Positions 17,262 through 36,541 of a stretch of 56,870 bases of DNA are shown here, piece by piece. The stretch is from a virus (lineage: Duplodnaviria > Heunggongvirae > Uroviricota > Caudoviricetes). Under the pieces are notes generated by a model. That model did not search any database, was not told the DNA's origin, and saw only the letters and a list, made by a program, of their open reading frames with translations. The DNA lies in the IMG/VR virus record IMGVR_UViG_2850796239_000009; one strand, given 5' to 3'. Numbering within the stretch: position 1 is the first letter of the stretch; the number at the start of each line of letters is the position of its first letter. Both the position numbers and the translations under genes were made by a program.

Positions 17262-17315
17262 TGTGTATTGCAATGTGTATTGCAAATTGGCGATCGGGAT
17301 GGGTGTGTATTGCAA
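17262..17315 (+). repeat. Three direct TGTGTATTGCAA repeats next to attL (putative integrase arm-type sites)
   Basis: TGTGTATTGCAA at 17262-17273, 17274-17285 and 17304-17315, just upstream of int; two related copies lie near attR. Confidence 0.45.
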
Positions 17316-17333
17316 ATCTCTTGAGGGCTTTTA

Positions 17334-18574
17334 ATGGCTATTGAAAACAAACTCAGTGACAAACTGTTAAAGAGTCTTGTCGGAAAACGGCAGGACAAAC
17401 AAAAAACAATAGCGGATGGGCGCGGGTTGTCTGTGCGTGTAAGCATGGTTGGGGGATCAGCTTTGTTTTTTACTATCGTCTTGGTGGCAGGGAATCCCCT
17501 CCGGTATGGCTTACACTTGGTCGCTATCCTGACATGTCTCTTGCAACGGCCAGGCGCATGCGTGATCAGTGCCGTGAATGGCTGGCTGAAAATCTGGACC
17601 CCCGCAGGCAAATAAAACTTGCTGCCGAAAAAACTATGCAACCAGTGACCGTAAGGGATGCGCTGTTTTACTGGTACGACAATCACGCCACAACAGCCAG
17701 AAAAGAGCATGAATATTTAATAAAACGATTTGAAAAGCATATCTTCCCCTATATCGGTGATATGGCTATAGAACAGTGCAAATTACACACATGGCTTACC
17801 GTCTTTGACAGGATCAAAAAAAATGCGCCTGTTATGTCTGGTGCAATTTTTCTTGATATCAAACAGGCGTTGCGTTTTTGTCGCGTCAGGCAATACATCG
17901 CGTGCGATCCCTTTGGAGATATTAACGTAAGTTATGTCGGGCGCTCATCCGGTATAAGGGATCGCGTTCTTAATATCAATGAAACCGCTGATGTATGGTC
18001 TTATGCTTACGGTAATAATTTGCTAACTCTGTCATCAATATATAACCGAAGAATAATGGTTATCTGCCTGGTGTTTGGTTGCCGACAGCAGGAGGCGAGG
18101 CTATCCACCTGGGACGAATGGGATTTAAAAAACTGGGTATGGACAGTCCCAAAAGAGCACAGCAAAAACAAGGAGGCTATAGTAAGGCCTGTTCCTGACG
18201 GAATAAAACAATGGATCGTTAATCTTTACGCAGAAACAAAAAATCGCGGTTATGTTGTCGGTTGTGCTTTGCAAAGGGCGACAATAACAGGGGCTGCAAA
18301 CAGAATATGCAGGCGTCTTGGTCATGATACTAATGGCTTGTGGTGCATACATGATTTCAGGCGCACATTTTCCACTACGCTTAATGATATGGGGGCGGAT
18401 CCTTATATTGTCGAACTTCTTTTAGGTCATAAAGTGAAAGGGGTTGCTGGTGTTTACAATAAAAGCAGGCATATAAAGAAAAAACTTGAGGTGCTTAATA
18501 TGTGGGTTAATTACCTTAATACGATAGCAGGATTTAACAACAACGTTATCGAGCTTAATAAAGAGGTGGTGTGA
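17334..18574 (+). pseudogene. int: Tyrosine integrase (P4/CP4-57 type), frame broken in a T6 run
   Basis: MAIENKLSDKLLKSLVGKRQDKQKTIADGRGLSVRVS... switches frame at TTTTTT (17466-17471) to ...YRLGGRESPPVWLTLGRYPDMSLATARRMR... with catalytic domain (HDFRRTF, LLGH). Confidence 0.8.
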
Positions 18575-18575
18575 T

Positions 18576-18833
18576 ATGGCAATTTATTCTCTTGTTGATG
18601 AAAACGATTTGCGCACAATGAAGGACATTGATCGGTTCATTCGTGAAAAAGAGTGCATAGCACTTACCACGCTGGCAAACTCAACACGCTGGAAAATGGA
18701 GCAGGCAGGTAAATTCCCGCGACGTATCAAGATCGGTGAACGTGCTGCAGGGTATCGACTTTCAGAGGTTCAGGCATGGATCCGTGGTGAGTGGCATCCT
18801 GGATGGAAACCTGGAAAAACAAAACAGCAATAA
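18576..18833 (+). CDS. AlpA-family HTH regulator / excisionase-like
   Basis: 85-aa ORF with ...ALTTLANSTRWKMEQAGKFPRRIKIGERAAGYRLSEVQAWIRG, the AlpA/Xis MerR-like HTH pattern; immediately follows int. Confidence 0.6.
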   Translation: MAIYSLVDENDLRTMKDIDRFIREKECIALTTLANSTRWKMEQAGKFPRRIKIGERAAGYRLSEVQAWIRGEWHPGWKPGKTKQQ

Positions 18834-18846
18834 CCAGTAAATAATG

Positions 18847-18869
18847 CCCCTCATCACGAGGGGTTTTTT
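18847..18869 (+). terminator. Rho-independent terminator after int-alpA
   Basis: CCCCTC-ATCAC-GAGGGG hairpin followed by TTTTTT. Confidence 0.5.
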
Positions 18870-18889
18870 GTCTATAAGGTAAAAACGCG

Positions 18890-19468
18890 ATGAATAAAAA
18901 TATTGCCGTGACGGGCAAGGGGTACGCTCGTCCAGTGAAAAAATTCTGCGATATTCGTGATCTCGTCGTTCTGCGCTTTGATAGTGTGAACGTTCGTGTG
19001 GTGTATCTGAACGGCGATCCGTGGTTTGTTGCAAAAGATGTTTGTGCTGCGCTGGAACTAACCAATTCGCGTACGGCGTTGCAGATGCTTGATGATGATG
19101 AAAAGGGAGTAAATTTAACTTACACCCCAGGAGGAAATCAGAATATGAGAATTATCTCTGAGTCAGGTTTCTACAAACTAATAGCCCGCAGCCGCAAAGC
19201 AACGACGCCTGGCACATTTGCTCATCGTTTCAGTAACTGGGTATTCAGAAATGTGATACCAGGTATCAGAAAAACGGGGACTTATGGTATCCCGTGGGGT
19301 GCATTACAGGATTTTTCCCGCCGTAAAGAGCAATATCAAATAAGTGCCAGCGAGAAGGGGAGGGAGCTACAGGCATGTAAGCGCAAAAAGCGTGAGCTGG
19401 AGGAAGAAGAAAAAACGCTGATACGTGAATATCAGCCTGAGTTTTACTTTGGTAACCGCATTCAGTGA
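18890..19468 (+). CDS. BRO-N / KilA-N domain protein (antirepressor-like)
   Basis: 192-aa ORF with N-terminal ...LNGDPWFVAKDVCAALELTNSRTALQMLDDDEKG..., the Bro-N domain pattern. Confidence 0.6.
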   Translation: MNKNIAVTGKGYARPVKKFCDIRDLVVLRFDSVNVRVVYLNGDPWFVAKDVCAALELTNSRTALQMLDDDEKGVNLTYTPGGNQNMRIISESGFYKLIARSRKATTPGTFAHRFSNWVFRNVIPGIRKTGTYGIPWGALQDFSRRKEQYQISASEKGRELQACKRKKRELEEEEKTLIREYQPEFYFGNRIQ

Positions 19469-19801
19469 CAAAACAAAGGCGACCGCAAAAGGGTCGCCAG
19501 TGGGAACAAGGGAAAACAAAAGCATCACCAACAATGCCACATTTGCGGCTGGTGGGCAATGTGATCAGTCAGATTTGGTTCGTTCCAAGGTTTGCAACGA
19601 GAGCTTTTTCCTGTGCTCTTTAAGGAATTTCTCAAGAGCAAACGAACAAGGTGCGAATCTTTCTGATTCATGTTCATGCGCTATATTTTTGCGTCGTCTC
19701 TTACGAGTTGGTGATGGTGTTTTGGTTGATTCTGTGTCGCTCATGGTGCTGTCCTGTAAAGCAATGCGCCTGCGTTCCTCAAACTATGGCGCTGATATTG
19801 G

Positions 19802-20107
19802 CTATTCATGCTCTTTGACCTTGCGTCGCTGGAGTTCTTCACGCGCGACGGTGACGAGTTGCCCGATCTCCTCGGCTGCTTTGATGCCGATTTGTTCGAC
19901 CTTAGCCAGGGCATCCAGTGACGACACAAGGGGATTTTCTCCGCTGCCTTCTGCTTGGCGGCGGGCTATTTCTCCGCGCATGGCGGTTACGATAAATCCG
20001 GCATTGCTTTCACCGTCCAGCTTAACGGATTCCATCCCTTGCATAACATCTAGTGGGACTCTGACAGTTGTCAGTTGTGATTTTGCGTTTTTGTTAGCCG
20101 TTGCCAT
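19802..20107 (-). CDS. Putative ribbon-helix-helix DNA-binding regulator
   Basis: 101-aa ORF whose N-terminus (TTVRVPLDVMQGMESVKLDGESNAGFIVTAMRGEIARRQ) has an RHH-like strand-helix-helix pattern; divergent from the downstream operon. Confidence 0.35.
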   Translation of the reverse strand: MATANKNAKSQLTTVRVPLDVMQGMESVKLDGESNAGFIVTAMRGEIARRQAEGSGENPLVSSLDALAKVEQIGIKAAEEIGQLVTVAREELQRRKVKEHE

Positions 20108-20168
20108 TTCTGAAACTCCTAATCATCGGTGTGTTTCAGTATACACAAAAAAAGAAATACAAAAAGCC

Positions 20169-20206
20169 TTGACGTGTGTTTCATGCGCTCATAACATGAA
20201 ACACAC
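20169..20206 (+). promoter_or_regulatory. Putative promoter (-35 TTGACG) overlapped by a 12-bp inverted repeat operator
   Basis: GTGTGTTTCATG-n9-CATGAAACACAC perfect inverted repeat at 20174-20206 in the divergent intergenic region. Confidence 0.35.
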
Positions 20207-20348
20207 CGAAAGGATTGTTGAAATACAAAGAGCAACGCCCCGCAGTGCTGGGAACACATACGGGGCGTCTAACCAACAACGTAAACTAGGCTGTGTCCCT
20301 TAATCATCTGAGCTATAGTAACTGTCTGTTTACACAACATATTGAACT

Positions 20349-20798
20349 ATGGCTCGCTACGACCTTCCCGATGAGGCATGGACCATCATCAAGCCCCTGT
20401 TACCTCCTGAACCCGCCACACCACGGGCCGGACGCCCATGGGCTGAGCACCGTAAAATCATCAATGGCATGTTCTGGGTGTTATGTTCCGGTGCACCATG
20501 GCGCGATTTACCCGAACGATATGGGTCATGGAAAACTGTTTATAACCGCTTTAACCGATGGTCAAAGTCAGGCGTGATTAATATTATTTTCAACAGGTTG
20601 CTTTCGCTACTTGATGCAAACGGCTTTATTGACTGGTCTGCCACCGCGCTGGATGGCAGTAATATCCGGGCGCTGAAATGTGCCGCCGGTGCTCAAAAAA
20701 ACATCCCGATATCGACGGAGATAATGGGCCGGGTCGCTCTCGCGGCGGTTTTGGCACCAAAATCCATCTGGCAACAGACGGAAGTGGCCTCCCGTTAA
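20349..20798 (+). CDS. IS5-family transposase OrfA (copy 2)
   Basis: 149-aa ORF MARYDLPDEAWTIIKPLLPP...; A7 slippery run (GCTCAAAAAAAC) near its end feeds into orfB. Confidence 0.8.
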   Translation: MARYDLPDEAWTIIKPLLPPEPATPRAGRPWAEHRKIINGMFWVLCSGAPWRDLPERYGSWKTVYNRFNRWSKSGVINIIFNRLLSLLDANGFIDWSATALDGSNIRALKCAAGAQKNIPISTEIMGRVALAAVLAPKSIWQQTEVASR

Positions 20799-21193
20799 AT
20801 ATCGTGCTAAGCCCCGGACAAGCTCATGAAAGCCAGTTCGCGCAACGACTTCTGGACGGGATTGGCGTTCAGCGTCAGAACGGCAGCATGAAACGCCGTG
20901 GACATGCGGTACTGGCTGATAAAGCGTATTCAGGGCGCGCATTGCGCAACGAGCTGAAAAATAACGGTATAAAGGCAGTAATCCCCCGAAAGTCAAATGA
21001 GAAAATGGCATCGGATGGACGTGCACAGCTTGATCGTGATGCGTACCGCAATCGTAATGTCGTTGAACGGTGCTTTGGGCGGCTGAAAGAATATCGCCGC
21101 ATCGCCACGCGTTACGACAAAACGGCGAGAAATTACCTGGCGATGGTGAAACTGGGCTGCATCCGACTCTTTTATCAACGCTTACGTAATTAA
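20678..21193 (+). CDS. IS5-family transposase OrfB (DDE domain; likely OrfAB fusion by -1 frameshift)
   Basis: 171-aa ORF overlapping orfA in the -1 frame. Confidence 0.75.
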   Translation: MCRRCSKKHPDIDGDNGPGRSRGGFGTKIHLATDGSGLPLNIVLSPGQAHESQFAQRLLDGIGVQRQNGSMKRRGHAVLADKAYSGRALRNELKNNGIKAVIPRKSNEKMASDGRAQLDRDAYRNRNVVERCFGRLKEYRRIATRYDKTARNYLAMVKLGCIRLFYQRLRN

Positions 21194-21215
21194 GGGACAC
21201 AGCCTAGGAGCCGTT

Positions 21216-21413
21216 ATGGTTGCTGTAAATCATATACCACACCTTGTACACACACAAACGGCCTTTGTGTGGCGTTTTCTGGCACTGAGTGCCGGAGAAT
21301 CTCAAATCATCCACGTAACCGCCTGGACGGAACGCGAAGCGCGTAGCCGTTGCCCGTCCGGTTGTGTTGCTGTATTCGCTGCAAAAATCCGCCAGGGAGT
21401 GAGTCATGCTTAA
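21216..21413 (+). CDS. Hypothetical small protein (satellite operon)
   Basis: 65-aa ORF starting right after the IS5-family copy. Confidence 0.25.
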   Translation: MVAVNHIPHLVHTQTAFVWRFLALSAGESQIIHVTAWTEREARSRCPSGCVAVFAAKIRQGVSHA

Positions 21414-21591
21414 AACCTTCCGTGTATTTGCCCGAGCTGTTAACCCAATAGGCCACACAATTGGTATCGCTCAGAATGTGAAGGCTGTTAATGTTCAGAC
21501 GGCTATTGCTGCGGTGAGAAGCGAATCATCAGAATATGGCTTATCACAAGTCATTATTTCAGCAGTGTATGAATTAAAAGAGGTGCATTAA
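21406..21591 (+). CDS. Hypothetical small protein (satellite operon)
   Basis: 61-aa ORF overlapping its neighbours. Confidence 0.3.
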   Translation: MLKTFRVFARAVNPIGHTIGIAQNVKAVNVQTAIAAVRSESSEYGLSQVIISAVYELKEVH

Positions 21592-21782
21592 TGCAGGAAA
21601 TTACATTACACGAAGCCGCTGAACGTGCGCACCAGACAGAAATTATTTGCCGCCTTCTTGAGGTATACCCGAACAAAATTACAGATGCTGATATATCCGC
21701 ACTGGCGAGCCTACTGGCGCGTCTTTCGGGAAGTGTCGCTAGTTTTTTGATTGAGGAAGAAAGTAAGCTGGTGGGGGATTAA
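21591..21782 (+). CDS. Hypothetical small protein (satellite operon)
   Basis: 63-aa ORF with overlapping stop/start. Confidence 0.3.
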   Translation: MQEITLHEAAERAHQTEIICRLLEVYPNKITDADISALASLLARLSGSVASFLIEEESKLVGD

Positions 21783-22004
21783 ATGAATACAGAACGGGAA
21801 GTCTTTTTTAAATTGTTAGCATGTGCAGAAAGTTCATTAACTTTAAATAATTCAGCAAAAGCAATATTAAATATGTGGCTTGATTGCATAAATGACAATG
21901 AAGATGCAAATATTGCTTATGGCCTGTTGTCACTTATTGATGAATCAGCAGAAAAACTCAATGACGCAATAAATAGTGCCCTGCTATCAAATAAGTCGAG
22001 TTAA
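21783..22004 (+). CDS. Hypothetical small protein (satellite operon)
   Basis: 73-aa ORF. Confidence 0.3.
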   Translation: MNTEREVFFKLLACAESSLTLNNSAKAILNMWLDCINDNEDANIAYGLLSLIDESAEKLNDAINSALLSNKSS

Positions 22005-22021
22005 GTCGAGGAATAAATAAT

Positions 22022-22321
22022 ATGGAAATGAAAAATTCTGGCTTTATTGCCAGCGGCCCCGCTCGACCTGAATTTATGAACGGCGATATTTACCGCGATA
22101 AATACGGCGGCACGGTAACGATTAAAGGCGTGGCAGAACGGCGCATCACTTACCGCCGTGAGGGGTATAGCTATGACTGCGTGATGCCTGTTTATCAGTT
22201 CCGGCGTGATTTTTCCCTGGTATATGCCGCACCCCGCAGTAAGCCCATCAGCAGGGAAAAAGCGTGGGGAAATATCCAGAAAATGAAAACCATGATTAAC
22301 GGATTCAGAGGTAAAAAATGA
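22022..22321 (+). CDS. Hypothetical protein (satellite operon)
   Basis: 99-aa ORF whose stop overlaps the pri-rep start. Confidence 0.3.
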   Translation: MEMKNSGFIASGPARPEFMNGDIYRDKYGGTVTIKGVAERRITYRREGYSYDCVMPVYQFRRDFSLVYAAPRSKPISREKAWGNIQKMKTMINGFRGKK

Positions 22322-24071
22322 AACTGGCACCGAACGTAAAACAGCAGTCACGCGGCATAAAACACAAAGGAACAGAAGTAATTATTTTTGCGGGTAGTGA
22401 TGCCTGGGCACACGCGAAACAATGGCAGGAACATGATGCGCGTATGGCCGGAGATAATGAGCCTCCTGTGTGGCTTGGGGAGCAGCAGCTATCCGAACTG
22501 GATAATCTGCAAATTGTGCCGGAAGGCCGAAAATCAGCACGCATATACAGGGCCGGATATCTTGCGCCTGTAATGATAAAGGCGATTGGTCAGAAGCTGG
22601 CGGCAGCAGGCGTACAGGATGCAAATTTTTATCCTGAGGGTATGCACGGCCAGGAGGTGCAGAACTGGCGCGAATATCTGGCCCGTGAACGCCAGAATCT
22701 TTCTGATGGTCTGGTCATTGAGCTTCCGGTAAAGCAAAAGGCGCAACTTTCGCAGATGGCGGACAGTGAGCGCGCGCAGTTGCTTGCCGATCGCTTTGAT
22801 GGCGTTTGCGTACATCCTGAAAGTGAAATCGTTCACGTATGGCGCGGCGGGGTATGGTGTCCGGTCAGCACAATGGAACTTAGCCGCGAAATGGTGGCGA
22901 TCTATTCAGAGCACAGGGCCACTTTCAGCAAGCGCGTAATCAATAACGCCGTGGAAGCGTTAAAAGTTATTGCCGAACCAATGGGCGAGCCGTCTGGCGA
23001 TTTGCTGCCGTTCGCCAATGGTGCGCTTGACCTGAAAACGGGGGAATTTTCCCCGCACACGCCGGAGAACTGGATCACCACGCACAACGGCATTGAGTAC
23101 ACGCCACCAGCACCAGGGGAGAACATCCGCGATAACGCGCCAAACTTTCATAAATGGCTTGAGCACGCAGCCGGAAAAGACCCGCGCAAGATGATGCGTA
23201 TATGTGCCGCGCTGTACATGATTATGGCGAACCGGTACGACTGGCAGATGTTTATTGAGGCCACCGGAGACGGCGGGAGCGGTAAAAGTACATTCACACA
23301 CATAGCCAGCCTTCTGGCAGGGAAACAGAACACGGTAAGCGCTGAAATGACATCGCTTGATGATGCTGGTGGACGTGCGCAGGTTGTCGGGAGTCGTCTT
23401 ATCGTCCTGGCTGACCAGCCGAAATATACAGGCGAAGGAACGGGCATCAAGAAAATCACAGGCGGCGACCCGTGGAAATTAACCCGAAATATGAAAAGCG
23501 TTTCACGGCGGTAATCAGGGCGGTGGTGCTGGCGACCAACAACAACCCGATGATATTCACCGAACGGGCCGGAGGTGTGGCACGTCGTCGCGTGATTTTC
23601 CGTTTCGACAATATCGTCAGTGAGGCCGAAAAAGACAGGGAGCTACCGGAAAAGATTGCGGCTGAAATCCCCGTTATTATCCGCCGATTGCTGGCGAACT
23701 TTACCGACCCTGAGAAGGCACGGGCTTTACTACTGGAACAGCGTGACGGTGATGAAGCACTGGCAATAAAGCAACAGACGGATCCGGTTATTGAGTTTTG
23801 CCAGTTCCTGAATTTTCTGGAGGAAGCGCGCGGCCTGATGATGGGTGGCGGTGGTGATTCAGTGAAGTACACGACCAGGAACAGCCTTTACCGCGTCTAT
23901 CTGGCGTTTATGGCATACGCGGGCAGGAGCAAACCGCTAAACGTGGCTGAGTTCAGCAAGGCCATGAAGCCAGCGGCGAAAGTTTACGGGCATGAATATA
24001 TTACGCGAAAAGTTAAGGGAGTAACGCAGACCAACGCAATTACAACAGACGATTGCGACGCGTTTTTATAA
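22318..24071 (+). pseudogene. Primase-helicase (pri-rep, D5/P4-alpha-like), frame broken near 23470
   Basis: Walker A GDGGSGKST; ...KITGGDP switches frame to VEINPKYEKRF...NNNP (helicase-like C-terminus); two ORFs 22318-23514 and 23472-24071. Confidence 0.7.
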
Positions 24072-24087
24072 TTTTTTGTAAAAGCCA

Positions 24088-24325
24088 TCTACCCCATCTA
24101 CCTGAACGAAATAAACGCATATTATTCAACATGATAAGTGGGTATAGGGCTAGGTAGAAGGCTAATAAAAGCTCTCTACCTCTTCTACCTGATTTTATCA
24201 GTTTCAGGTAGCAGGGTAGACGGCAGGTAGAGGAGTCAAAAAAGCTATCTACCCGCTGAAAGCGGCGCCATTACTGACATGATGAGCATTCGGGTAGATG
24301 GGTAGAGGGGGGAGGCACAACTAAA
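24088..24325 (+). repeat. Iteron cluster / putative satellite replication origin
   Basis: At least ten TCTACC/GGTAGA-type repeats in both orientations with AT-rich spacers, directly downstream of pri-rep. Confidence 0.5.
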
Positions 24326-24355
24326 AACTTTTTAAACGAGGGGGGGTGAAAATAA

Positions 24356-24670
24356 ATGCGCATACATAAAAATCACTTAACAAACATGCCAGCCGAAAAC
24401 ATGAATCAGGGGCGACAAATGACCAAAATTCGCAGAGACAGAACACAGGCAAAATATAAAGCGTTAGACATGACAGAGCTTTCCTTAAAGGTGGCAATCA
24501 AAGCGATAGACCACCACACACGGGCAGGATACGCGAAGGAACATCCCGACCTGATAAGCGCATTCATGACCACAGCAGCGGCAAACTTTGCCACGCTGAC
24601 AGAACGGGAGATTGCCGAAGCGGAACAGGTGACAACCATCAATGTTAAAACCGGAGAGCAGACAGCATGA
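24356..24670 (+). CDS. Hypothetical protein
   Basis: 104-aa ORF; no recognisable motif. Confidence 0.3.
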   Translation: MRIHKNHLTNMPAENMNQGRQMTKIRRDRTQAKYKALDMTELSLKVAIKAIDHHTRAGYAKEHPDLISAFMTTAAANFATLTEREIAEAEQVTTINVKTGEQTA

Positions 24671-25089
24671 CAGCACAGATAGCGGCTTACGGGCGGCTGG
24701 TGGCTGACCCGCAGTTAAAGACCACCAGCAAAGGGACACAAATGGCGATGGCGAGTATGGCGGTTCCCCTGCCGTGCAGCCAGGCAGATGACGGAACGGC
24801 GACGATGTGGTTATCCGTCCTGGCGTTTGGCAGACAGGCCGACGCACTGGCAAAACACCACAAAGGCGAACTGGTGAGCGTGGCGGGTAACATGCAGGTA
24901 AGCCAGTGGACAGGCCAGAACGGCGAAACGCGGCGGGGCTGGCAGGTTATCGCAGACAGCGTAATCAGTGCGCGAACGGCGCGACCGGGCGGCAAAAAAG
25001 GCCAGCAGGGGCAGGCCACTGACGCACTGAACAGGGCAAAACAACAGTCGGGGAATGATGATCCGTACGGCGATAATATACCGTTTTAA
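24667..25089 (+). CDS. SSB-like single-stranded DNA-binding protein
   Basis: 140-aa ORF with Gly/Gln-rich linker and acidic C-terminal tip DDPYGDNIPF resembling the SSB tail DDDIPF. Confidence 0.5.
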   Translation: MTAQIAAYGRLVADPQLKTTSKGTQMAMASMAVPLPCSQADDGTATMWLSVLAFGRQADALAKHHKGELVSVAGNMQVSQWTGQNGETRRGWQVIADSVISARTARPGGKKGQQGQATDALNRAKQQSGNDDPYGDNIPF

Positions 25090-25300
25090 ATTCTGCAAAC
25101 AAAAAGATGCCGGAAAAAAATAGATTTTCCGGCATGCTACATAAATCCCGACCAAAGGAAGTAAATACATTAACACGAATTATCAGCACTGAAGTTGTTA
25201 CGGCATATTTTATACAACATTGCACTTGGTTGCATGTGTTCGCATAGCAGACATCGGTAATAGAATATATTCACAATTATTTGTAATGAATGTAAAGAGG

Positions 25301-26347
25301 ATGAGTATGGTTGATTTATATTCGCCTACACAGCTTGTGCAGGTGGCTAATGCTGAAGATGTGCAAAAAAATTAAATGCGTTGTTTACCAGTTTGTTTTT
25401 CACTCGCTCGGTAATGTTTGAATCGAGAGACATTATTCTTGATACGATCGACGATCCAAATATCCCGATCGCGGCGTTTTGCTCTCCTATGGTGGGCAGT
25501 AAAGTTTCACGAGATGAGGGATACGAATCAAAAACAATTCGTCCAGGTTATATGAAGCCGAAAAGCAGCATTGATCCAAATAAGTTAGCTGTGCAGCCCT
25601 GCTGGTGTGTCACCTGAGCAATACAATGCTTTTGGGGCGCGTAATATTAAAGTTAAACAGGCGATTGTAAATCAGGCTAAAGCTATTCGTGCACGTATTG
25701 AATGGCTTGCTGTTCAGGCAATCACAACGGGGAAAAATATCATTGAGGGCGATGGTATTGAACGTTATGAGCTGGACTGGAATATAAAACCACAAAATAT
25801 CATCACTCAGTCTGGCGGTACTGAGTGGTCAGGTAAGGATAAAGAAACTTTTGATCCAAATGATGATATTGAGAGCTACGCAGAATTTAGTGAGGGCGTC
25901 ACTAATATCATCATTATGGGTGGTAATGTATGGAAGAAATACCGTTCATTCAGAGCGATAAAAGAGGCTTTGGATACCCGTCGTGGTTCTAATTCCGAAC
26001 TGGAAACGGCCCTTAAAGACCTTGGTGATTCGGTGAGTTTTAAAGGGTATATGGGCGATGTTGCGATTGTTGTTTACAGCGGGCGTTATACCGACGAGGA
26101 CGGAACAGAAAAACATTTCCTTGATCCTGATTTGATGGTGCTTGGCAATACGGCTCTTCAGGGGATTGTCGCCTATGGCGGTATTCAGGATCCGGAGCTA
26201 ATCCGAATGGGGCTGACTAAAGCCGAACTTGCACCGAAAAACTATATTGTGCCTGGTGATCCGGCTATTGAATATGTGCAGACACATTCAGCACCACAGC
26301 CAATACCGGCCCGCATCAATCGTTTTGTTACCGTTCGCATTGGCTAA
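25301..26347 (+). pseudogene. Major capsid protein paralog (lambda gpE-like) encoded by the satellite; two homopolymer frame breaks
   Basis: MSMVDLYSPTQLVQVANAEDVQK (compare gpE MSMYTTAQLLAANEQKF), then ...ITQSGGTEWS...DTRRGSNSELETALKDLG...GDVAIVVYSG... alignable with the helper gpE at 31416-32441; breaks at the A7 run 25365-25371 and CCC at 25597-25599. Confidence 0.75.
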
Positions 26348-26356
26348 GGGGGAGCA

Positions 26357-26698
26357 ATGGCTACTCATTACACTGAACTCATGGCTGGCACTGAAGCACT
26401 GGTGACTACGCTGGGGATATTTTCAGCTAATAAAGGGGTAATTCCTGCATTTACGCCACTGATGCAGGAAGATGCAACAGGTGCACTGGTGGTATGGGAT
26501 GGTTCGAGCGTAGGTAAAGCGGTTTATGTTTCCGCTGTACAAATCGACACCGCGAAAAAAACACAGGCTCAGGTCTATAAGACAGGTGTCTTAAATGTTG
26601 ATGCTCTGAACTGGCCTGAGTCTGTTAAAGAACTGTCAGTAAAGGTTGCAGCGTTTGTTGGCTCAGGTATTTCTGTTCAGCCGCTGGCTCGTGTGTAA
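26357..26698 (+). CDS. Head decoration protein paralog (lambda gpD-like) encoded by the satellite
   Basis: 113-aa ORF with ...AFTPLMQEDATGALVVWDGSSVGKAVYVSAVQID... alignable with helper gpD (...[35 protein letters not shown]...). Confidence 0.7.
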   Translation: MATHYTELMAGTEALVTTLGIFSANKGVIPAFTPLMQEDATGALVVWDGSSVGKAVYVSAVQIDTAKKTQAQVYKTGVLNVDALNWPESVKELSVKVAAFVGSGISVQPLARV

Positions 26699-26709
26699 AG
26701 GGGGATACA

Positions 26710-27093
26710 ATGCAGAATGATTACAATGACCTTAAGCCAATTGCCGAAATGATGTACCCGAATCCAGCTGTAGAGGAATTAAAAGCTATCGCTGACAAAA
26801 TGTGTTTAAGCGAGCGCCTTGTTGATATGAATCAGGTGATGGAAATTACAACCCTGAGTCGTCGTACACTGCTAAACCTTGAGGCTAGTGGAGAGTTCCC
26901 GGAGCGTGTGCAGGTTACGGAAGGGCGTAAGGCCTGGTATTTAAGTGAAGTGATCGACTGGATAAATAATATTCCTCGCGCTTCTGAATATTGCCGCGTA
27001 CCTGTCCCAAAAAAGCCAGATGCGGCGCTATGCCTCAAGATTGAGCGTGTACGCCGCAATGCACGGGATGGTCGCTATAAGCTGATTGGTTGA
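26710..27093 (+). CDS. AlpA-like HTH DNA-binding protein
   Basis: 127-aa ORF with ...MEITTLSRRTLLNLEASGEFPERVQVTEGRKAWYLSEVIDWINN, a MerR/AlpA-like HTH pattern. Confidence 0.45.
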   Translation: MQNDYNDLKPIAEMMYPNPAVEELKAIADKMCLSERLVDMNQVMEITTLSRRTLLNLEASGEFPERVQVTEGRKAWYLSEVIDWINNIPRASEYCRVPVPKKPDAALCLKIERVRRNARDGRYKLIG

Positions 27094-27149
27094 TGAAATT
27101 AGGGCCCGCTCTGGCTGGCGGGTCCTTTCCGGTGATCCGGTAGGCTACG

Positions 27150-27161
27150 GGGCGGCGACCT
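27150..27161 (+). other. Satellite cos site (cosN GGGCGGCGACCT, helper-like cosQ, divergent cosB)
   Basis: GGGTCCTTTCCGGTGATCCGGTAGGCTACGGGGCGGCGACCTCGCGGGTTTTCGCTATTTATGA matches the helper cos at 12131-12195 almost base for base, then diverges. Confidence 0.75.
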
Positions 27162-27282
27162 CGCGGGTTTTCGCTATTTATGAGCCTTTTTCGGGTGCTG
27201 GTGGTGGTTTTGTTGTTCGCTCTATCTCTATGAATAAAAAGGAAAAGATAAAGCCAATACACCAACCTGAAACATTACTTAA

Positions 27283-27837
27283 GTGGGGATATTGATGAAA
27301 TCGCACCTGATGAACAAAAAAAACATGGCGCAAAGCTGCCGTGTAAGTGCGACAGCGTTCGACAAGTGGGGAGTGACTCCCGTTGAACGTAAAGGCCGCG
27401 AGGCGTTTTATGATGTTGCCAGCGTAATAGACAATCGGGTTAGCAATGCAATTAACCAGATTACAGACGACAAAGGCGAGATTGATGATGATGAACTCCT
27501 ACGAGTCAGGATCAGATTGCTGACAGCACAGGCAGAGGCGCAGGAGCTTAAAAACGAGCGCGAACGCGGCGACGTTATTGATACAGCGTTTTGTATATAC
27601 GTGCTTTCAAAATTGGCGAGTCAGATTTCTTCAATCATGGACAGCCTGCCGCTTGCCATGACAAGGAAGTTTCCCGACATGAAGCCGTCTATGCTGGATG
27701 GACTGAAAAAAGAAGTTATCAGAGCCTGTAACGCATGCGCAAAACTTGACGAAAACATACCGCTGATGCTGTCCGATTATCTGATGGAAACTGCCGGAAA
27801 CGTACCGGATAAGTTGCAGCCGAATAAAGATAAGTAA
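27283..27837 (+). CDS. Satellite terminase small subunit (Nu1-like; divergent N-terminal domain)
   Basis: C-terminal part ...LTAQAEAQELKNERERGDVIDTAFCIYVLSKLASQISSIMDSLPL... parallels Nu1 ...[46 protein letters not shown]...; true start may be Met-10 (27310). Confidence 0.7.
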   Translation: MGILMKSHLMNKKNMAQSCRVSATAFDKWGVTPVERKGREAFYDVASVIDNRVSNAINQITDDKGEIDDDELLRVRIRLLTAQAEAQELKNERERGDVIDTAFCIYVLSKLASQISSIMDSLPLAMTRKFPDMKPSMLDGLKKEVIRACNACAKLDENIPLMLSDYLMETAGNVPDKLQPNKDK

Positions 27838-27848
27838 CGTAGTACGCT

Positions 27849-28130
27849 ATGACTGAATCCGAAATACTGCGATTAATCCGCCGTGCTTGTGGAATCAGCA
27901 AGCAGCATGACGAACAGGCCACGCAGCCGGACAGCGTGACCGCAGATAATTATGTGCGTGTAGTGGCTGAGGTGATGCGCCGTGACGGTATTGAGCTTAA
28001 CGGCGTGGATATGCGCAACATACGAACAAGAGTCCTTGAGTTGCTGGCATATCGTCGCCGTTCTCAACAACGGAGGGAGAGCGCGAAAAATACTTACCAG
28101 TGGAAGAAGCCGGAACGATTGCGGCGGTAA
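27849..28130 (+). CDS. Hypothetical protein
   Basis: 93-aa basic ORF after terS. Confidence 0.3.
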   Translation: MTESEILRLIRRACGISKQHDEQATQPDSVTADNYVRVVAEVMRRDGIELNGVDMRNIRTRVLELLAYRRRSQQRRESAKNTYQWKKPERLRR

Positions 28131-28560
28131 CTTGCTGATATTCCCGATAACGCAAAATTGCGCTGGCTGACTTGTTGCATTGCAAAAAGTTAAGCAGGAA
28201 GGCACGGCCTGTAAGATGGGATGCAGTAAGTAGTTCAAGGCTACCTTGTGCTGGCACGCACAGTTAAGCCGTCGGTGCTGGATATCCCCCACTGGGGAAA
28301 AGCTGGCTACATCCCTCACATCTGAGGACTGATAACGCGACATTGCGCTGGCTGGCAAAGTGCAAAATTGCACGATGGCCTAACCCATTGATTATTTCGA
28401 AAACCTGCAATGCAGGAAATCGGGGAAGTAAGCCTAAGCTATTGATTGTTTCGAAAACCCCCATTGGGGGATGTCGGGAAAGTAAGACTAACCCATTGAT
28501 TCTTCCACAATCCTCAATTTGAGGAGGCCGGAACGTCTACATAGCTGCATCGCCGTAATG
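28130..28560 (+). repeat. Array of direct repeats each containing a different perfect palindrome (covarying stems)
   Basis: Three tandem ~54-bp units (28383-28545) share ATTGATTnTTyC...TCGGGrAAGTAAG and hold CCTGCA-A-TGCAGG, CCCCCA-T-TGGGGG, CCTCAA-T-TTGAGG; related pair GATAACGCnAnATTGCGCTGGCTG at 28146 and 28331 with CGCAA-AA-TTGCG, TTGCA-T-TGCAA, GTGCAA-AA-TTGCAC. Confidence 0.6.
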
Positions 28561-28843
28561 ATGATTCAGCCCACCAGCCAAATCAGCACAGCAACGACAG
28601 AATAGCCCGACACAGAAAAACCACGAATATGGGGTTTTTGTTATGACATGGTCATGATGACCACTCATACAAAACAGGTAAAGCCCACCAGCCTGATTAA
28701 AGGTTAACCGGAAAAAAGCCAGGTATCCAATCTCGATATGGGGATCCCTATATCGACATTAACGCCCACTAAAACTGTGCATATATGCATAGAAAAAGCA
28801 TCCACCAGCTTTATGACGGATGCCGCTCATCTTATAAATAATC

Positions 28844-28866
28844 GTGTATTGCAGTGTGTATTGCGA
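28844..28866 (+). repeat. Two GTGTATTGC repeats next to attR (arm-type-like)
   Basis: CGTGTATTGCAGTGTGTATTGCGA, related to the TGTGTATTGCAA repeats at attL. Confidence 0.4.
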
Positions 28867-28946
28867 CTCCTTTAAACGATAGGTCTGAGCATTCGTAATG
28901 TACTGTTTTTAAATTTTATTTTTTCCTGTCTTTTCATAAAGGCGAT

Positions 28947-29718
28947 GTATGCCGCCACCATTGAGAGTGAGCTGGATACGCAGTCAGCGATGGATTTTAT
29001 TCTGGGCGCGAACAGTAAGGAGCAGCGGGACAAGCTGACCGGCTGGATTGGTGAAATTGCCGCGTATTACGCCGCAGCACCGGTCCGTCTGGGAGGCGCA
29101 AAAGTGCCGCACCTGATGCCGGGGGACTCACTGAACCTGCAGACGGCTCAGGACACGGATAACGGCTACTCCGTGTTTGAGCAGTCACTGTTGCGGTATA
29201 TCGCTGCCGGGCTGGGTGTCTCGTATGAGCAGCTTTCCCGGAATTACGCCCAGATGAGCTACTCCACGGCACGGGCCAGTGCGAACGAGTCGTGGGCGTA
29301 CTTTATGGGGCGGCGAAAATTCGTCGCATCCCGTCAGGCGAGCCAGATGTTTCTGTGCTGGCTGGAAGAGGCCATCGTTCGCCGCGTGGTGACGTTACCT
29401 TCAAAAGCGCGTTTCAGCTTTCAGGAAGCCCGCAGCGCCTGGGGGAACTGTGACTGGATAGGCTCCGGTCGTATGGCCATCGATGGTCTGAAAGAAGTAC
29501 AGGAAGCGGTGATGCTGATAGAAGCCGGACTGAGTACCTACGAGAAAGAGTGCGCAAAACGCGGTGACGACTATCAAGAAATTTTTGCCCAGCAGGTCCG
29601 TGAAACGATGGAGCGCCGTGCAGCCGGTCTTAAACCGCCCGCCTGGGCGGCTGCGGCATTTGAATCCGGACTGCGACAATCAACAGAGGAGGAGAAGAGT
29701 GACAGCAGAGCTGCGTAA
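28947..29718 (+). pseudogene. B: Portal protein gpB, C-terminal fragment
   Basis: MYAATIESELDTQSAMDFILGANSKEQRDKLTGW...LRQSTEEEKSDSRAA matches recalled gpB residues ~284-533; resumes exactly where 16327-17133 stops. Confidence 0.85.
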
Positions 29719-32441: not shown

Positions 32442-32523
32442 TCATGGCCCTTCGGGGCCATTTTCTCTCTGTGGAGGAGTCCATGACGAAAGTAAGCGCT
32501 CCGAGAAGTACGTAGCGTAAGGA

Positions 32524-34124
32524 TTATTTTACAGACGAGAAGTTCCAGGGCAGCAGTTCATGCACTTGGTTCGACGGCCAGTCATTGAGCTTCTCGATCA
32601 CTTCGCGCAACCAGTCCTCCGGCTCCACTTCGTTCTGTTTGCAGGTGACCAGCAGACTGTAGATGATCGCCGCACTTTCTCCTCCCTTGTCTGAGCCGAA
32701 AAAGAGATAATTTTTTCTTCCAACCGCCACCGATCGTAACGCGTTTTCACCGATGTTGTTGTCTATTTCCACCCAGCCGTCACGACAGAACTCGTTCAGC
32801 GCATTCCAGTGATTCAGGATATAGTCGAACGCCTTCGCCATCTCCGCATGTTTCGACAGCGTTTTCCTCTGCAACTGTATCCAGTCGTACAACGACTGCA
32901 TCAACTGGACGCTTCTGGCTTTTCTGACTGCAAGCCGTTCCTCTGCCGGACTGCCACGTATCTCCGCTTCTATGTCGTATAACTCTGCTATCCGTCTGAG
33001 CGCTTCCTGAGTCATTTCTGTCGGACGGCGCACATCCTCGTCATGGATTTTTCGGCGGGCGTGGGCCAGGCACCCGGCTTCCTTCACCCGGCCCGTTTCG
33101 TACAGTACGTTATAACCTGCATAGGCATCAGCCTGCAGTACGCCCTGATACTTTGCCAGGTGGAGCTGCGGATGTTCTCCTTTGCGATCTGCCGAATACG
33201 CGAACCAGACGGCTGCCGGCAGGGATGAACCCGCATTACGATCATCCCTGACGTATACCCACAGACGACCCGTTTTCGTCTTTCCGTTCCCCGGGGCCAG
33301 TACTTTCACCGGAGTGTCATCTGCGTGCACCTTTCCTGCCTCCAGAACATAGTCATTCAGCGCTATATACAGAGGACGGAGTTTGTCTGCCATTTCTGAT
33401 ACCCAGCGCACCATGGTATTACGGCTCAGCTCCACGCCCTGTCGCGCGTATATTTCTGACTGGCGATATAAAGGGATATGTTCCATATATTTGCTGACCA
33501 GGATCCGTGCAAGTAACCCTGCACTGGCATAACCGCGTTCGATCGGTTTAGGGGAAGTGGTGCCTGAACGATGACATCACACCGGCTACAGGCCAGTTTG
33601 GGACGTATGGTTTCGATAACTTTAAAGGCGGTATTAATGATATCCAGTTGCTCTGAGATTGTTTCCCCCATTTCTTTCAGAACACCTCCACAGGCCGGGC
33701 AACTGGTTTCAGCAGGCAGAAGGCGATGTGTCTCCCGGGGAAGTTCTGCCGGCAGCGGTTTTCGTGAAGATTTTCGTCCCGGGGATTCAGGCTTACTGGC
33801 GATCGGGTTTTCTGACGGGGGACTGGTGTCAGGTGAATCTGTGACTGACGATGCATCTTCCAGAAGATTTCTGGCTGTGTTCAGCCGGTTTTCCAGTTCC
33901 GACAGTCGTTTTTCTGCCTGTCGGATCTGATTTTCAAGCTTATGACGCTTTTTCTCTGAACTCTGGCCGAACAACATACGACGCAACCTGTCGAGTTGCG
34001 CTTTCAGCCGTTCAATTTCCTGCTCATAGCCCGCGACCTGACAGGCATACTGTCGAAGCCGACTCTGTTGCTTACGCAACATGGCTTTAAGCAGCTCAAT
34101 ATCATCGGGGAGTTCATTGTTCAT
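32524..34124 (-). pseudogene. IS66-family transposase TnpC, frame broken near 33520
   Basis: N-terminal zinc-finger part (CPACGG...CSRCDV) at 33426-34124 and C-terminal DDE part ([17 protein letters not shown]...) at 32524-33486 lie in different frames. Confidence 0.75.
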
Positions 34125-34143
34125 TCCCTTGTTTTATCACGGG

Positions 34144-34491
34144 TTATATCCGGATGCCAGGCCGTTCTGTCCGTTTGGGATGTTGCCACGCGATCCCCTC
34201 CAGTAGCATGGATAACTGAGCTGGCGTCAGGTGCACTTTCCCTTCCCGGGTCACCGGCCAGACGAAGCGGCCCCGTTCCAGGCGTTTGGCGAACAGGCAT
34301 AACCCGTCACGATCGGCCCACAGTATTTTCACCATTTTGCCACTGCGGCCCCGGAAGACGAAGATATGCCCGGAGAACGGGTCATCTTTCAGCGTGTTCT
34401 GCACCTTCGAAGCCAGGCCATTGAAGCCACAACGCATATCTGTGATGCCAGCGATGATCCAGATTTTGGTACCGGTCGGCAGCGTTATCAT
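34144..34491 (-). CDS. IS66-family TnpB
   Basis: 115-aa ORF MITLPTGTKIWIIAGITDMRCGFNGLASKVQ..., the IS66 Orf2 pattern. Confidence 0.8.
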   Translation of the reverse strand: MITLPTGTKIWIIAGITDMRCGFNGLASKVQNTLKDDPFSGHIFVFRGRSGKMVKILWADRDGLCLFAKRLERGRFVWPVTREGKVHLTPAQLSMLLEGIAWQHPKRTERPGIRI

Positions 34492-34619
34492 CGGATACCC
34501 CCTTTCATTTCGCGGATTAGCGCCCGTAACAGTTCCGGAGTGAGAGGGTCAAACAGTTTTACCACACCTGATTTAAGATGCAGCTCGCACCGTGGGACGT
34601 TTCCGGGAGCCCCCTCAGG

Positions 34620-35920
34620 CTGAGGAATCCCCAGAAAACGAGACAGACATAGCATTATGTGATCTACTGATTTGTGCCAACAATTCAATGAGATCACTGC
34701 TATGCCTGTTCATAAAGTATGTCAGAATTTCTTCCGGGATGCCTTAGCACCATTTCATCAGTACCGACAAAATGCCCTGATGGATGCCACAGTGGCGTTA
34801 ATCAACGGAGCATCTCTGACGCTGACCAGTATCGGACGTTTTTTGCCGGGTAATGCACAAGTTAAGAATAAGATCAAACGTATTGATCGCCTCATGGGTA
34901 ATGAGGCGCTCCATCGCGATATTCCAATGATTTTCAGGAATATCACTTCAATGCTGACACGGCAGTTATCTTTATGTGTAATAGCCGTAGACTGGAGTGG
35001 CTATCCCTCCCAGGAGCATCATGTTCTTCGTGCCAGCCTTCTGTGTGACGGGCGTTCCATTCCGTTATTGAGTAAGGTTGTTCCTTCTGAAAAACAAAAT
35101 AATCCATTGATACAACATGATTTCCTTGATTCCCTTGCTCAATCCCTGCCCCCCGATGCCAGGGTTATTATTGTCACGGATGCTGGATTTCAGAGCGCAT
35201 GGTTTCACCATATTACTTCTCTGGGCTGGGATTTTATTGGTCGGATCAGAAATAACGTTCAGTATTGCCTCGATAACGCGCCTGAAAGATGGTTAAAAGT
35301 GTCGGATAGCCCTGAATGTAAAACACCGGAATATATGGGGGCTGGAAGGCTGGTTAAAGAAAGGAAAAAAAGCATCCGGGGGCATTTTTACACCTATAAG
35401 AAATCGGCAAAAGGGCGAAAAAAGAAACGTTCGAAAGGTCAGAGTGGTTTAAACAAAACAGACAAAGAACAGAGCAAATCAGCAAAAGAAGCCTGGTTGA
35501 TCTTCAGCAGTACAAATGACTTCAGAGCGCGAGAAATCATCAAGTTATACAGTCGGCGAATGCAGATTGAGCAAAACTTTCGTGATGAAAAGAACGGGCG
35601 CTTCGGATTTGGTCTTCGGGCCAGCAAAAGTCGTTCAACAGGAAGAATTCTGGTTCTGAGTCTGCTGGCAACGTTGAGCACTATCGTAATGTGGTTACTC
35701 GGTTATCACGCTGAAAATAAAGGGTTACACCTGAAATATCAGGCTAACAGCATTAAATCCCGGCGGGTTATCTCATATCTGACGTTAGCGAAGAATGTTC
35801 TTCGACACTCGCCACTTATTTTAAGACGAACAGTACTGAGCACAGTTCTAAACCATCTGTCCAGAACCTACCGAAATATGGTGCTGGTTTATTAGCAGTA
35901 ATTTTGTGGGGATCCCTCAG
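34620..35920 (+). mobile_element. IS10-like (IS4-family) insertion sequence, copy 2, 1301 bp, nested in the IS66-family element
   Basis: Ends CTGAGGAATCCCCA...TGGGGATCCCTCAG; 9-bp target duplication CCCCTCAGG at 34611-34619 and 35921-35929. Confidence 0.85.
34672..35895 (+). CDS. IS10-like (IS4-family) transposase, intact copy
   Basis: 407-aa ORF with DDE-type architecture similar to the IS10 transposase. Confidence 0.8.
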   Translation: MCQQFNEITAMPVHKVCQNFFRDALAPFHQYRQNALMDATVALINGASLTLTSIGRFLPGNAQVKNKIKRIDRLMGNEALHRDIPMIFRNITSMLTRQLSLCVIAVDWSGYPSQEHHVLRASLLCDGRSIPLLSKVVPSEKQNNPLIQHDFLDSLAQSLPPDARVIIVTDAGFQSAWFHHITSLGWDFIGRIRNNVQYCLDNAPERWLKVSDSPECKTPEYMGAGRLVKERKKSIRGHFYTYKKSAKGRKKKRSKGQSGLNKTDKEQSKSAKEAWLIFSSTNDFRAREIIKLYSRRMQIEQNFRDEKNGRFGFGLRASKSRSTGRILVLSLLATLSTIVMWLLGYHAENKGLHLKYQANSIKSRRVISYLTLAKNVLRHSPLILRRTVLSTVLNHLSRTYRNMVLVY

Positions 35921-36541
35921 CCCCTCAGGGCGCTCATCATGCTTGTTACGCCAGAAGGGATTTGTAACTGGTCTGGTCGGCTCCGGCGTATCAGTCAGTG
36001 CCACCGGGACAGGCATGCATTCCTGTATGTCATCATCGCTCAGTAAGCCGTCCTCGTACTGGCTTTTCCATTTAAACAGCAGGTTATCATTGATATCGTG
36101 TTCTCTGGCGATCCGGGCAACAACAGCCCCAGGCTGTAACGCCTGCTTAGCCAGACGGACCTTAAATTCACGGCTATAGCTGGTTCGCCGTTCTTTTCGC
36201 CATGAGCCTTCTCTGATTTGAGGCTCTGTTAATTCCTTCTTTCTGTTGGCATAAAGGATGGCGTCAAGTTGAGCGAATGAAACTGAATCGGGCAATGGCC
36301 ATGCGATACCGGATGCAAGAAATCGCTGAAAAAGCGTATGTATTGTGGAATGACTGAGACCCAGACGCTGAGCGATGGCCCGGATGGTCAGTTTATCTTC
36401 AAATCTTAAACGCAGGGCATCAGGCAAATAAGAACGGAAGCAGGGAATATCTTTTGTTGTCTGGGAATTCATCGTTCGTGTCCATCAATATAGATGGGCG
36501 CGATTGTTGCCAGACAGGACAATTTTCACAAGACGTCGCTG

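Follow-up and report, generated by a model that had tools for sequence, protein, structure and literature searches.

A helper-embedded satellite of a lambdoid prophage carries a helper-type cos site with a private cosB and a Nu1-family small terminase

Organization of the locus

The window analyzed here, i.e. the whole stretch of 56,870 bp filed as IMG/VR virus record IMGVR_UViG_2850796239_000009, is a DLP12-like lambdoid prophage of lambda specificity, and it harbors a satellite, the helper-embedded phage-inducible chromosomal island (HE-PICI) that is the subject of this work. The best-matching E. coli genome is that of EC93, in which the same composite adjoins a tRNA-Arg gene and intD. The satellite has a cos site, the second one of the window, and directly behind it a gene for a small terminase subunit (TerS); together they probably constitute a packaging module, which would rely on the large terminase subunit (TerL) of the surrounding prophage, the helper. 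The features essential for this interpretation are the following.

12131-12137 and 12161-12172, + strand: helper cosQ (GGGTCCT) and cosN, from exact motif positions
12173-12349, + strand: helper cosB of lambda type, from alignment to the left end of Lambda_2E9
12211-12228, + strand: helper R3 region GGCGTTTCCGTTCTTCTT, bp +51-68, from the Lambda_2E9 alignment
27120-27126 and 27150-27161, + strand: satellite cosQ and cosN of helper type, from motif positions and blastn
27200-27217, + strand: candidate TerS binding element GGTGGTGGTTTTGTTGTT, R3-equivalent, bp +51-68 from the cohesive end, conserved in relatives
27295-27837, + strand: satellite small terminase, 180 aa, Nu1 family, N15-type DNA-binding domain (DBD)

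The two cos sites

The lambda cohesive-end sequence cosN, GGGCGGCGACCT, occurs in the window in exactly two copies, at 12161 and 27150, both on the + strand and 14,989 bp apart, in line with the direct orientation and the distance reported in the initial annotation. Two further strings are found exactly twice as well, again on the + strand, namely CGGGGCGGCGACCTCG (12159 and 27148) and the cosQ-containing GGGTCCTTTCCGG (12131 and 27120). The cosQ heptamer GGGTCCT precedes both cosN copies at the same distance; the lambda-type cosQ, the 12-nt cosN and the spacing are the same in the helper and the satellite cos. In the cosQ-cosN block (27118-27183 vs 12129-12194) 62 of the 66 bp are identical (blastn E 1e-21), and the four mismatches, at 27133, 27140, 27141 and 27145, all fall within the spacer between cosQ and cosN. 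The identity continues for 22 bp beyond cosN. The claim of a second cos site with helper-like cosQ and cosN is thereby confirmed, and the cos-like 12-mer is not a stray match devoid of a flanking cosQ.

Outside the block the two sites part. The 60 bp upstream are identical at 13 of 60 positions, which is the random level, and the 60 bp downstream at 30 of 60 (ungapped). Chance occurrence and duplication of the helper site were both rejected, as the flanks are unrelated and the second cos lies inside the att sites of the satellite. Because the island is placed between these att sites in the HE-PICI configuration, the second cos belongs to the satellite, as had been supposed before.

Up to the start of Nu1, all of cosB included, the left chromosome end of the helper is nearly identical to that of a lambda-type phage (Lambda_2E9 alignment). 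The helper thus holds the R3/I1/R2/R1 layout of lambda cosB (PMC4669245, PMC9026076), whereas the cosB of the satellite is different and shorter. The initial annotation had the two sequences diverge completely at this point. The divergence is real but only partial, as the downstream count demonstrates, and the claim was overstated, since the R3-equivalent position retains a related T/G-rich triplet pattern with other bases.

The small terminase of the satellite

The listed open reading frame (ORF) starts with GTG at 27283; in the 100%-identical copy of EC93 the start annotated in RefSeq corresponds to ATG 27295, which is most likely the correct one and gives a protein of 180 aa. As judged by homology, the ORF encodes a full-length small terminase of the Nu1 family. 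BLASTP aligns it with helper Nu1 over the full length and up to the last residues of Nu1 (38% identity, E 9e-37), and phrog_57 (“terminase small subunit”) spans its residues 5-180 (E 3e-51). The Pfam family Phage_Nu1 (PF07471) is matched with 85.7 bits at a cut-off of 30, in residues 70-152 only (profile positions 80-162 of 164). Identity to helper Nu1 amounts to 27% in residues 1-50, 52% in residues 71-130 and 40.5% in residues 131-167. The last segment corresponds in the alignment to the ~40 residues of Nu1 that bind TerL (gpA), so that a gpA-binding part appears to be present; the tail is Nu1-like with a 13-residue extension and retains the pattern LK..A.N....P....Y.

It had been proposed that the protein resembles Nu1 in its C-terminal half and possesses a different N-terminal domain. 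The C-terminal resemblance holds in a real alignment down to the end of Nu1. The N-terminal part of the proposal has to be modified: the restricted Pfam match and the 27% identity agree with it, but the BLASTP alignment is full-length and the domain is not foreign; it is most likely a winged-helix homologue with the specificity type of N15. The best phage relative of TerS is gp1 of phage N15 (47.6% identity over 91% of the length), and none of the 50,697 phage records contains a protein closer than 48%. The DBD is 58% identical to that of N15 gp1, and the sequence AFDKWGV at the position of the recognition helix is the same in both proteins. TerS is devoid of the ~11-residue segment that follows the wing in lambda and 21-type TerS. 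The AlphaFold2 model, built on a 29-sequence family alignment, has a pLDDT of 55; its helices (H) and strands (E) follow the order H8-14, H19-25, E29-31, E37-39, H41-56 and then long helices, which faintly hints at the expected winged helix-turn-helix (HTH) with a helical oligomerization region.

The gene lies downstream of cos, 145 bp from cosN, and is followed by a 93-aa ORF. It is not followed by a large terminase gene, and the satellite has none.

We also considered TerS as a possible Rpp protein, i.e. a member of the family that redirects packaging in PICI EcCICFT073 and its relatives. For this comparison rppA was located in EcCICFT073 of the CFT073 genome (L008:42660-43094, 144 aa; it matches RppC, PDB 6HLK, at 5e-31). 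BLASTP of TerS against RppA produced no alignment, and with its 180 aa and Nu1-like tail TerS was rejected as an Rpp protein. A PDB sequence search with TerS returned chance matches only, with neither RppC 6HLK nor any other Rpp or Nu1 DBD entry among them; it thus speaks against Rpp membership by sequence and provides no structural information.

The cosB region and a candidate binding element

The position equivalent to lambda R3 is occupied in the satellite by the 18-mer GGTGGTGGTTTTGTTGTT, which contains the GTTGTT core of N15 R3. In N15, no part matters more for packaging than the GTTGTT block (PMC4669245). The sequences at this position in the compared elements are listed below.

Window satellite: GGTGGTGGTTTTGTTGTT, bp 51-68
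E. coli chromosomal PICIs, TerS 79% identical: the same 18-mer, in one island 6 bp closer to cosN
Enterobacteriaceae HE-PICIs in the capsid gene, TerS 60%: GGTGGTGGTGTTGTTATT
Enterobacteriaceae HE-PICIs in the capsid gene, TerS 59%: GGTGGTGGTGTTGTTGTT
Metagenomic relative, TerS 73%, other right half of cosN: GGTGGGCGTGTTGTTGTT
Helper prophage: GGCGTTTCCGTTCTTCTT, which is lambda R3
EcCICFT073: CACCACCACCAC, bp 54-65
Phage N15 R3: GAGGTTGTTGTT, bp 48-59

The core is present at a like position in the satellites with 79%, 60% and 59% identical TerS, and the sequence flanking the 18-mer has diverged. In the fourth satellite (TerS 73%), the cosN of which differs, only the GTTGTTGTT part is retained. 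As far as can be judged from these alignments, the satellites retain an element with the N15 core in the R3-equivalent region, and the cosQ-cosN next to it follows the lambda type or, once, another cutting site. In the window satellite GTTGTT occupies bp 63-68, and bp 54-59 read GGTGGT. The GGT triplets ahead of it (window 27194-27208; ~9900-9925 in the islands L009-L012) number 3, 4 with one GCT, or 5.

With cosB alone as the query, no match was obtained among the phage records mentioned above. Short direct repeats had been named in the initial annotation as possible binding elements; the search was carried out, and no repeated element was detected at <=2 mismatches. Neither an N15-like inverted rR2 copy nor further R repeats were found at this threshold in 27100-27900. 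One inverted match of 14 nt (86%) at 27312-27325 was discarded, since it lies in A-rich NKKN codons and is probably coding-forced.

The top strand of the TerS-type cosB (GGTGGTGGT, 27200-27208) can be compared with the Rpp-type cosB of EcCICFT073 (CACCACCACCAC, L008 42612-42623), located at a nearly equal distance from cosN. CACCACCACCAC is the reverse complement of the triplet repeat in GGTGGTGGT, and the two proteins have no detectable similarity.

Alternation of TerS and Rpp cassettes

The module resembles the Rpp-cos module of EcCICFT073 (Fillol-Salom 2018/2019, PMC6092414, PMC6739421; Murialdo and Feiss 2022, PMC9026076) in the helper-type cosQ/cosN, in the non-helper cosB and in the gene of a DNA-binding protein directly 3' of it, and the flanking genes are alike too (E-like capsid, D-like decoration and the 93-aa ORF, which is 76% identical to the ORF 3' of rppA). 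The proteins themselves differ. Rpp has 135-153 aa and no tail, whereas TerS has 180 aa with a C-terminal tail; the DBD of RppA resembles lambda Nu1 (30% over 64 aa), in contrast to the N15-type DBD of TerS. The cosB motifs are (GGT)n-TTTGTTGTT in the satellite and CACCACCACCAC in EcCICFT073.

In islands otherwise 94% identical to EcCICFT073 the TerS gene holds the position of rpp, directly 3' of cos. EcCICFT073 and the TerS island at roxA/phoQ are 94% identical to ~40 bp past cosN of the first cos (cos1), unrelated over cosB and the rpp or terS gene, and similar again from the inverted second cos (cos2) on. The differing segment comprises L008 42559-43309 in EcCICFT073 and L009 9862-10729 in the TerS island, with flanks 89-94% identical. 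Since the similarity stops at cos1 and resumes at the inverted cos2, the exchanged cassette is bracketed by two cos sites, and this arrangement suggests cassette exchange at conserved cos sequences. No cos2 was found in the window satellite.

Selection and distribution

Compared with its 79%-identical relative, TerS has a dN/dS of 0.205 overall and of 0.09 in the DBD. The DBD is the most conserved part within the TerS family (74-98%), and the C-terminal tail is the most variable one (30-87%). Synonymous divergence rises from 0.23 in the DBD to 0.73 in the tail, and this increase indicates that the tail has been exchanged by recombination. The tail of the window type has its nearest counterpart in lambda/N15 Nu1 (40.5%), and that of the roxA/phoQ-island type in another prophage TerS (43%). 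In this small sample there is a slight hint that the tails follow the helper terminases. One further island with the module is chromosomal (cspD/clpS site) and has no adjacent helper with which its tail could be compared.

The cosB+TerS segment is present at >=80% nucleotide identity in 767 of the 5426 complete E. coli genomes (~1 in 7). Islands with the module reside at several sites, namely the portal gene, the capsid gene, roxA/phoQ and cspD/clpS, and an intact TerS under purifying selection is found across satellites of E. coli, Citrobacter and Enterobacter. These comparisons provide evidence that the cosB/TerS module is functional as a family.

Proposed packaging mechanism and its alternatives

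Our interpretation joins the anatomy, homology, conservation, selection and distribution presented above to three predicted properties of TerS: DNA binding, recruitment of TerL and independence of the helper TerS. With a probability of about 0.6, the second cos site and the ORF behind it represent the packaging module of the satellite, in which the private TerS and cosB would direct the helper large terminase to the helper-type cosN. The satellite would synthesize a complete Nu1-family TerS, and the N-terminal winged helix of N15 recognition type would bind the private cosB element GGTGGTGGTTTTGTTGTT at +51 to +68, which the lambda-type helper Nu1 should not recognize. The central and C-terminal parts, homologous to the oligomerization and gpA-binding parts of Nu1, would recruit the helper large terminase, which would nick the helper-type cosN and later terminate at the helper-type cosQ/cosN. 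Concatemers of the satellite would be packaged in this way with the motor, portal and tails of the helper. The initial annotation had summarized the pattern as the same nicking site with a private recognition site and a private small subunit, and all computed data fit this description: the cosB is found in no phage record, and TerS is <=48% identical to any phage protein.

A direct experimental precedent, by analogy, for the proposed mechanism exists in the hybrid phage lambda-N15hy4, in which N15 cosB is combined with a chimeric TerS whose helix-turn-helix end comes from N15: the phage is viable, uses lambda TerL and shows N15 packaging specificity (PMC4669245). The terminases of lambda and 21 do not package N15-cosB DNA (PMC4669245). 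If the analogy holds, the satellite should not be packaged by the helper alone, nor would its TerS necessarily exclude the helper. Apart from the likeness of TerS to gp1 (47.6% overall, 58% in the DBD, AFDKWGV) and GTTGTT in the R3-equivalent, N15 (Feiss et al. 2015, PMC4669245) and the satellite have in common a short cosB in which repeated R sites are not evident. The satellite is unlike N15 in the lambda-type cosN, in the position of the core, in having no TerL gene next to TerS and in the rR2 copy, which was not found; the C-terminal half of its TerS is only 40-52% identical to N15/lambda, while N15 and lambda are ~80% identical there. The staphylococcal islands (SaPI) of pac type are alike in that a satellite-encoded TerS homologue (TerS-SP) acts with the helper TerL at a satellite-specific site. 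They differ in headful (pac) packaging, in a separate protein, Ppi, that blocks the phage TerS, and in an unrelated TerS family, whereas the satellite studied here is of cos type and keeps the cutting and termination sites of the helper.

Several observations weigh against the proposed mechanism. The GTTGTT core is located ~9 bp farther from cosN than in N15, and the (GGT)n copies vary from 3 to 5 among the islands, which shifts the distance between GTTGTT and cosN by as much as 6 bp; alterations of this spacing by >1-2 bp impair lambda (PMC4669245). The C-terminal 37 residues of TerS are only 40% identical to helper Nu1, which is about the level of lambda vs 21-type TerS (32%). Distinct DNA-packaging specificities were reported for lambda and 21 (PMC4669245), and with a tail about as divergent as that, direct docking of TerS on helper gpA is not assured. 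The AlphaFold model is of low confidence, the satellite in the window has frameshifts in the integrase, primase and capsid genes as well as an insertion sequence (IS), and no biochemical or genetic test of this TerS family was found in the searchable literature.

The main rival explanation is an Rpp-like heteromer, in which TerS would co-assemble with helper Nu1 via the central oligomerization region; the mixed oligomer would read the satellite cosB and be poisoned for the helper cosB, and Nu1 would still hold gpA. The TerS gene stands exactly at the rpp position in islands otherwise 94% identical to EcCICFT073, the packaging of which requires the helper TerS (PMC6739421, PMC6092414), and the heteromer would also agree with the best conservation relative to helper Nu1 being found in residues 71-130 (52%) and with a C-terminal tail only 40% identical to Nu1. 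However, Rpp proteins of 135-153 aa have no TerL-binding tail (PMC9026076), whereas TerS aligns to the very end of Nu1; neither RppA nor RppC has sequence similarity to TerS; and Rpp contacts the DNA-binding domain of TerS, which is here of another type than that of the helper. We therefore regard the heteromer as unlikely. Less probable still is a role mainly as an interference device, with TerS titrating the helper large terminase or forming dead-end complexes, so as to lower the helper yield, and the satellite being packaged chiefly via the shared cosQ/cosN with low-specificity initiation. PICIs characteristically interfere with the packaging of their helpers (PMC6739421), and plasmids carrying PICI cos with a foreign cosB are still moved by lambda and phi80, at a reduced level (PMC6092414). 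Conservation is, however, strongest in the DBD (dN/dS 0.09) and in the cosB element of fixed position, a pattern suggesting that the function under selection is the sequence-specific recognition of DNA.

The cos site and TerS might, finally, be a passive relic captured from a lambdoid phage along with the capsid and decoration genes and having no current role. Late zones of PICIs are known to capture late genes of helpers (PMC10111431), and the composite surrounding the module in the window is clearly decaying. Against this stand the intact ORF, on which purifying selection acts in satellites of three genera at several integration sites, the lack of any difference between the module and its counterpart in EC93 (100% identity) and the absence of a source phage from the 50,697 phage records. 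We regard a relic as the least probable of the explanations considered.

Starting from the packaging module with its private TerS, a broader proposal can be put forward, which we judge to have somewhat less than an even chance of being correct. Gram-negative cos PICIs may possess a second, Rpp-free mode of hijacking, in which an N15-type TerS with a helper-matched, recombining tail recruits the helper TerL directly and bypasses the helper TerS. TerS and Rpp cassettes would then be interchangeable units, bounded in EcCICFT073-like islands by cos1 and the inverted cos2. As an N15-type terminase can also package lambda-type DNA, the satellite TerS might tolerate the helper, and it might even complement a Nu1-defective helper, e.g. 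one with the amber allele present in the window, rather than block it.

The satellite and its helper prophage

The other features of the composite are listed below, all on the + strand.

12350-12895: helper small terminase Nu1 (nohD), amber-interrupted at 12704-12706 (translation; Pfam)
12870-14795: helper large terminase, gpA-like, 641 aa, intact (ORF list; EC93 CDS “phage terminase large subunit”, no stops)
14995-17133: helper portal gene, 5' part, up to the attL core AAGGCGAT at 17126-17133 (EC93 synteny, att core)
17134-28938: satellite body, HE-PICI (EC93 annotation and alignment, Pfam/PHROG)
17334-18574: satellite integrase, 1-bp deletion
22318-24071: satellite primase, 1-bp deletion
25307-26347: E-like capsid, two indels
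26357-26698: D-like decoration
26710-27093: AlpA-like
27849-28130: conserved 93-aa satellite ORF, phrog_1561 (PHROG match)
28939-29718: attR core AAGGCGAT at 28939-28946 and helper portal gene, 3' part (Pfam Phage_portal_2 profile positions 238-354)

The 8-bp att core AAGGCGAT flanks the island at 17126 and 28939, and the island splits the portal gene at Pfam profile position ~238-241, the downstream fragment beginning at 238. Without IS the island is 10.9 kb long (~11 kb), and its genes are co-directional with the late genes of the helper. They are arranged in the order integrase, HTH, BRO-N, Icd-like, DUF4222, primase, SSB, E-like capsid, D-like decoration, AlpA-like, cos, TerS and the 93-aa ORF; according to the annotation of the 99.8%-identical EC93 copy, genes for tail or lysis functions are absent. 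The element is a bona fide satellite of the published HE-PICI group B:Phage_portal_2:241 (Tommasini, Mageeney, Williams 2023, PMC10111431), with which it shares the ~11-kb co-oriented island in the portal gene of an argU (tRNA-Arg) lambdoid prophage, the att core AAGGCGAT and the Integration, Bro, Replication and Late zones in this order. The supplement of that paper lists 11-kb E. coli elements at B_Phage_portal_2_241 with the core aaggcgat inside ~60-kb prophage composites bearing the site suffix '.R' (PMC10111431). TerS and cosB of the satellites were not analyzed there, and the model element 11capE was stated to have no terS and to have 258 bp of cos in common with its helper (PMC10111431). 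In contrast to 11capE, the common block of the window satellite is only 66 bp long and is followed by a private TerS.

The satellite encodes an E-like major capsid protein (disrupted here) and a D-like decoration protein (25307-26698), but no portal, protease or large terminase. In EcCICFT073 deletion of either the capsid or the decoration homologue did not bring back normal plaque formation of lambda (PMC6092414). The AlpA-like gene (excisionase/regulator family) directly 5' of the satellite cos is the second gene of this kind besides the HTH gene beside the integrase. It is found at this place in HE-PICIs and in one cspD/clpS island; an unrelated 137-aa ORF takes its place in roxA/phoQ islands. 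A promoter and terminator scan of 26600-28300 found none, which fits read-through from upstream, though it says little.

In one Enterobacteriaceae contig (L018 1-1302) the integrase of an HE-PICI abuts helper early genes (CI repressor, YdaS/YdaT and a truncated DUF1376) rather than the 5' part of the capsid gene. That contig seems to have lost the stretch of the helper that reaches from the replication genes as far as the capsid gene, together with helper cos and terminase.

State of this copy

Codon 119 of helper Nu1 is an amber codon (TAG, 12704-12706), in place of TCG in EC93. The first 118 aa match Pfam Phage_Nu1 with E 2.3e-73. With a stop at this codon the helper TerS would be deprived of its part for oligomerization and gpA binding; the TerS of the satellite is intact. 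An IS4-family element is inserted ~30 bp into the helper portal gene, at ~15024-16329 as judged by homology of the IS copies or at 15027-16317 by comparison with EC93. A second copy of this ~1.3-kb element (~34617-35923, 99.9% identical, opposite orientation) belongs to a 4-kb IS66+IS4 block at 32493-36554 just after the helper capsid gene. A 923-bp IS5-family element with a split transposase lies in the satellite between the BRO-N and Icd-like genes (~20286-21208 from IS-copy homology, 20291-21203 from the EC93 comparison), and a second, 99.9% identical copy of it is found in the tail-fibre region of the helper (~49839-50761).

Relative to EC93, single-base indels at 17451, 23469, 25365 and 25595 break the integrase, primase and E-like capsid genes of the satellite. 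All of them are at or beside short same-base runs, and they could represent either real decay or assembly errors; the amber codon of Nu1 stems from a substitution, and the IS insertions leave no such ambiguity. The cos site and the genes for TerS, the decoration protein, the AlpA-like protein and the 93-aa product do not differ from EC93 (100% identity). Mobility of the composite in this strain is very improbable, and with a composite so degraded the module, though well preserved, is probably inactive.

In EC93 the composite, as long as it is not excised, measures ~55.5 kb and exceeds the capacity of a lambda head. Going rightwards from the satellite cos round to that of the helper, one covers ~43 kb, a length that can be packaged. 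If packaging began at the satellite cos prior to excision, a hybrid chromosome without the 13-kb segment between the cos sites could thus, by pure inference, be packaged.

Significance

For this window the result is ordinary, as it concerns one decayed copy of a catalogued element with a gene already annotated “terminase small subunit”. The strategy too is already established for satellites, by the TerS of SaPI and by Rpp in cos PICIs. The 2018 survey noted some Gram-negative PICIs with a terS homologue, and SatelliteFinder counts the small terminase among the core PICI components (PMC10085698). The N15-type nature of this TerS and cosB, its being a positional alternative to Rpp and an experimental test of it were not found in the searchable literature. 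What the present analysis adds is the N15-type specificity, a conserved candidate binding element and the alternation of TerS and Rpp cassettes. It is now testable whether this TerS needs the helper TerS, whether its variable tail tracks the helper TerL and whether it has an N15-like asymmetric specificity.

Packaging redirection in Gram-negative cos PICIs has so far been explained experimentally by Rpp only, and the authors of the Rpp studies left open the origin of Rpp, the reason for its several types and the presence of two cos sites in some islands. The complete Nu1-family TerS, with its probable N15-type specificity, would be a common alternative in the rpp slot, being carried by about one in seven complete E. 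coli genomes.

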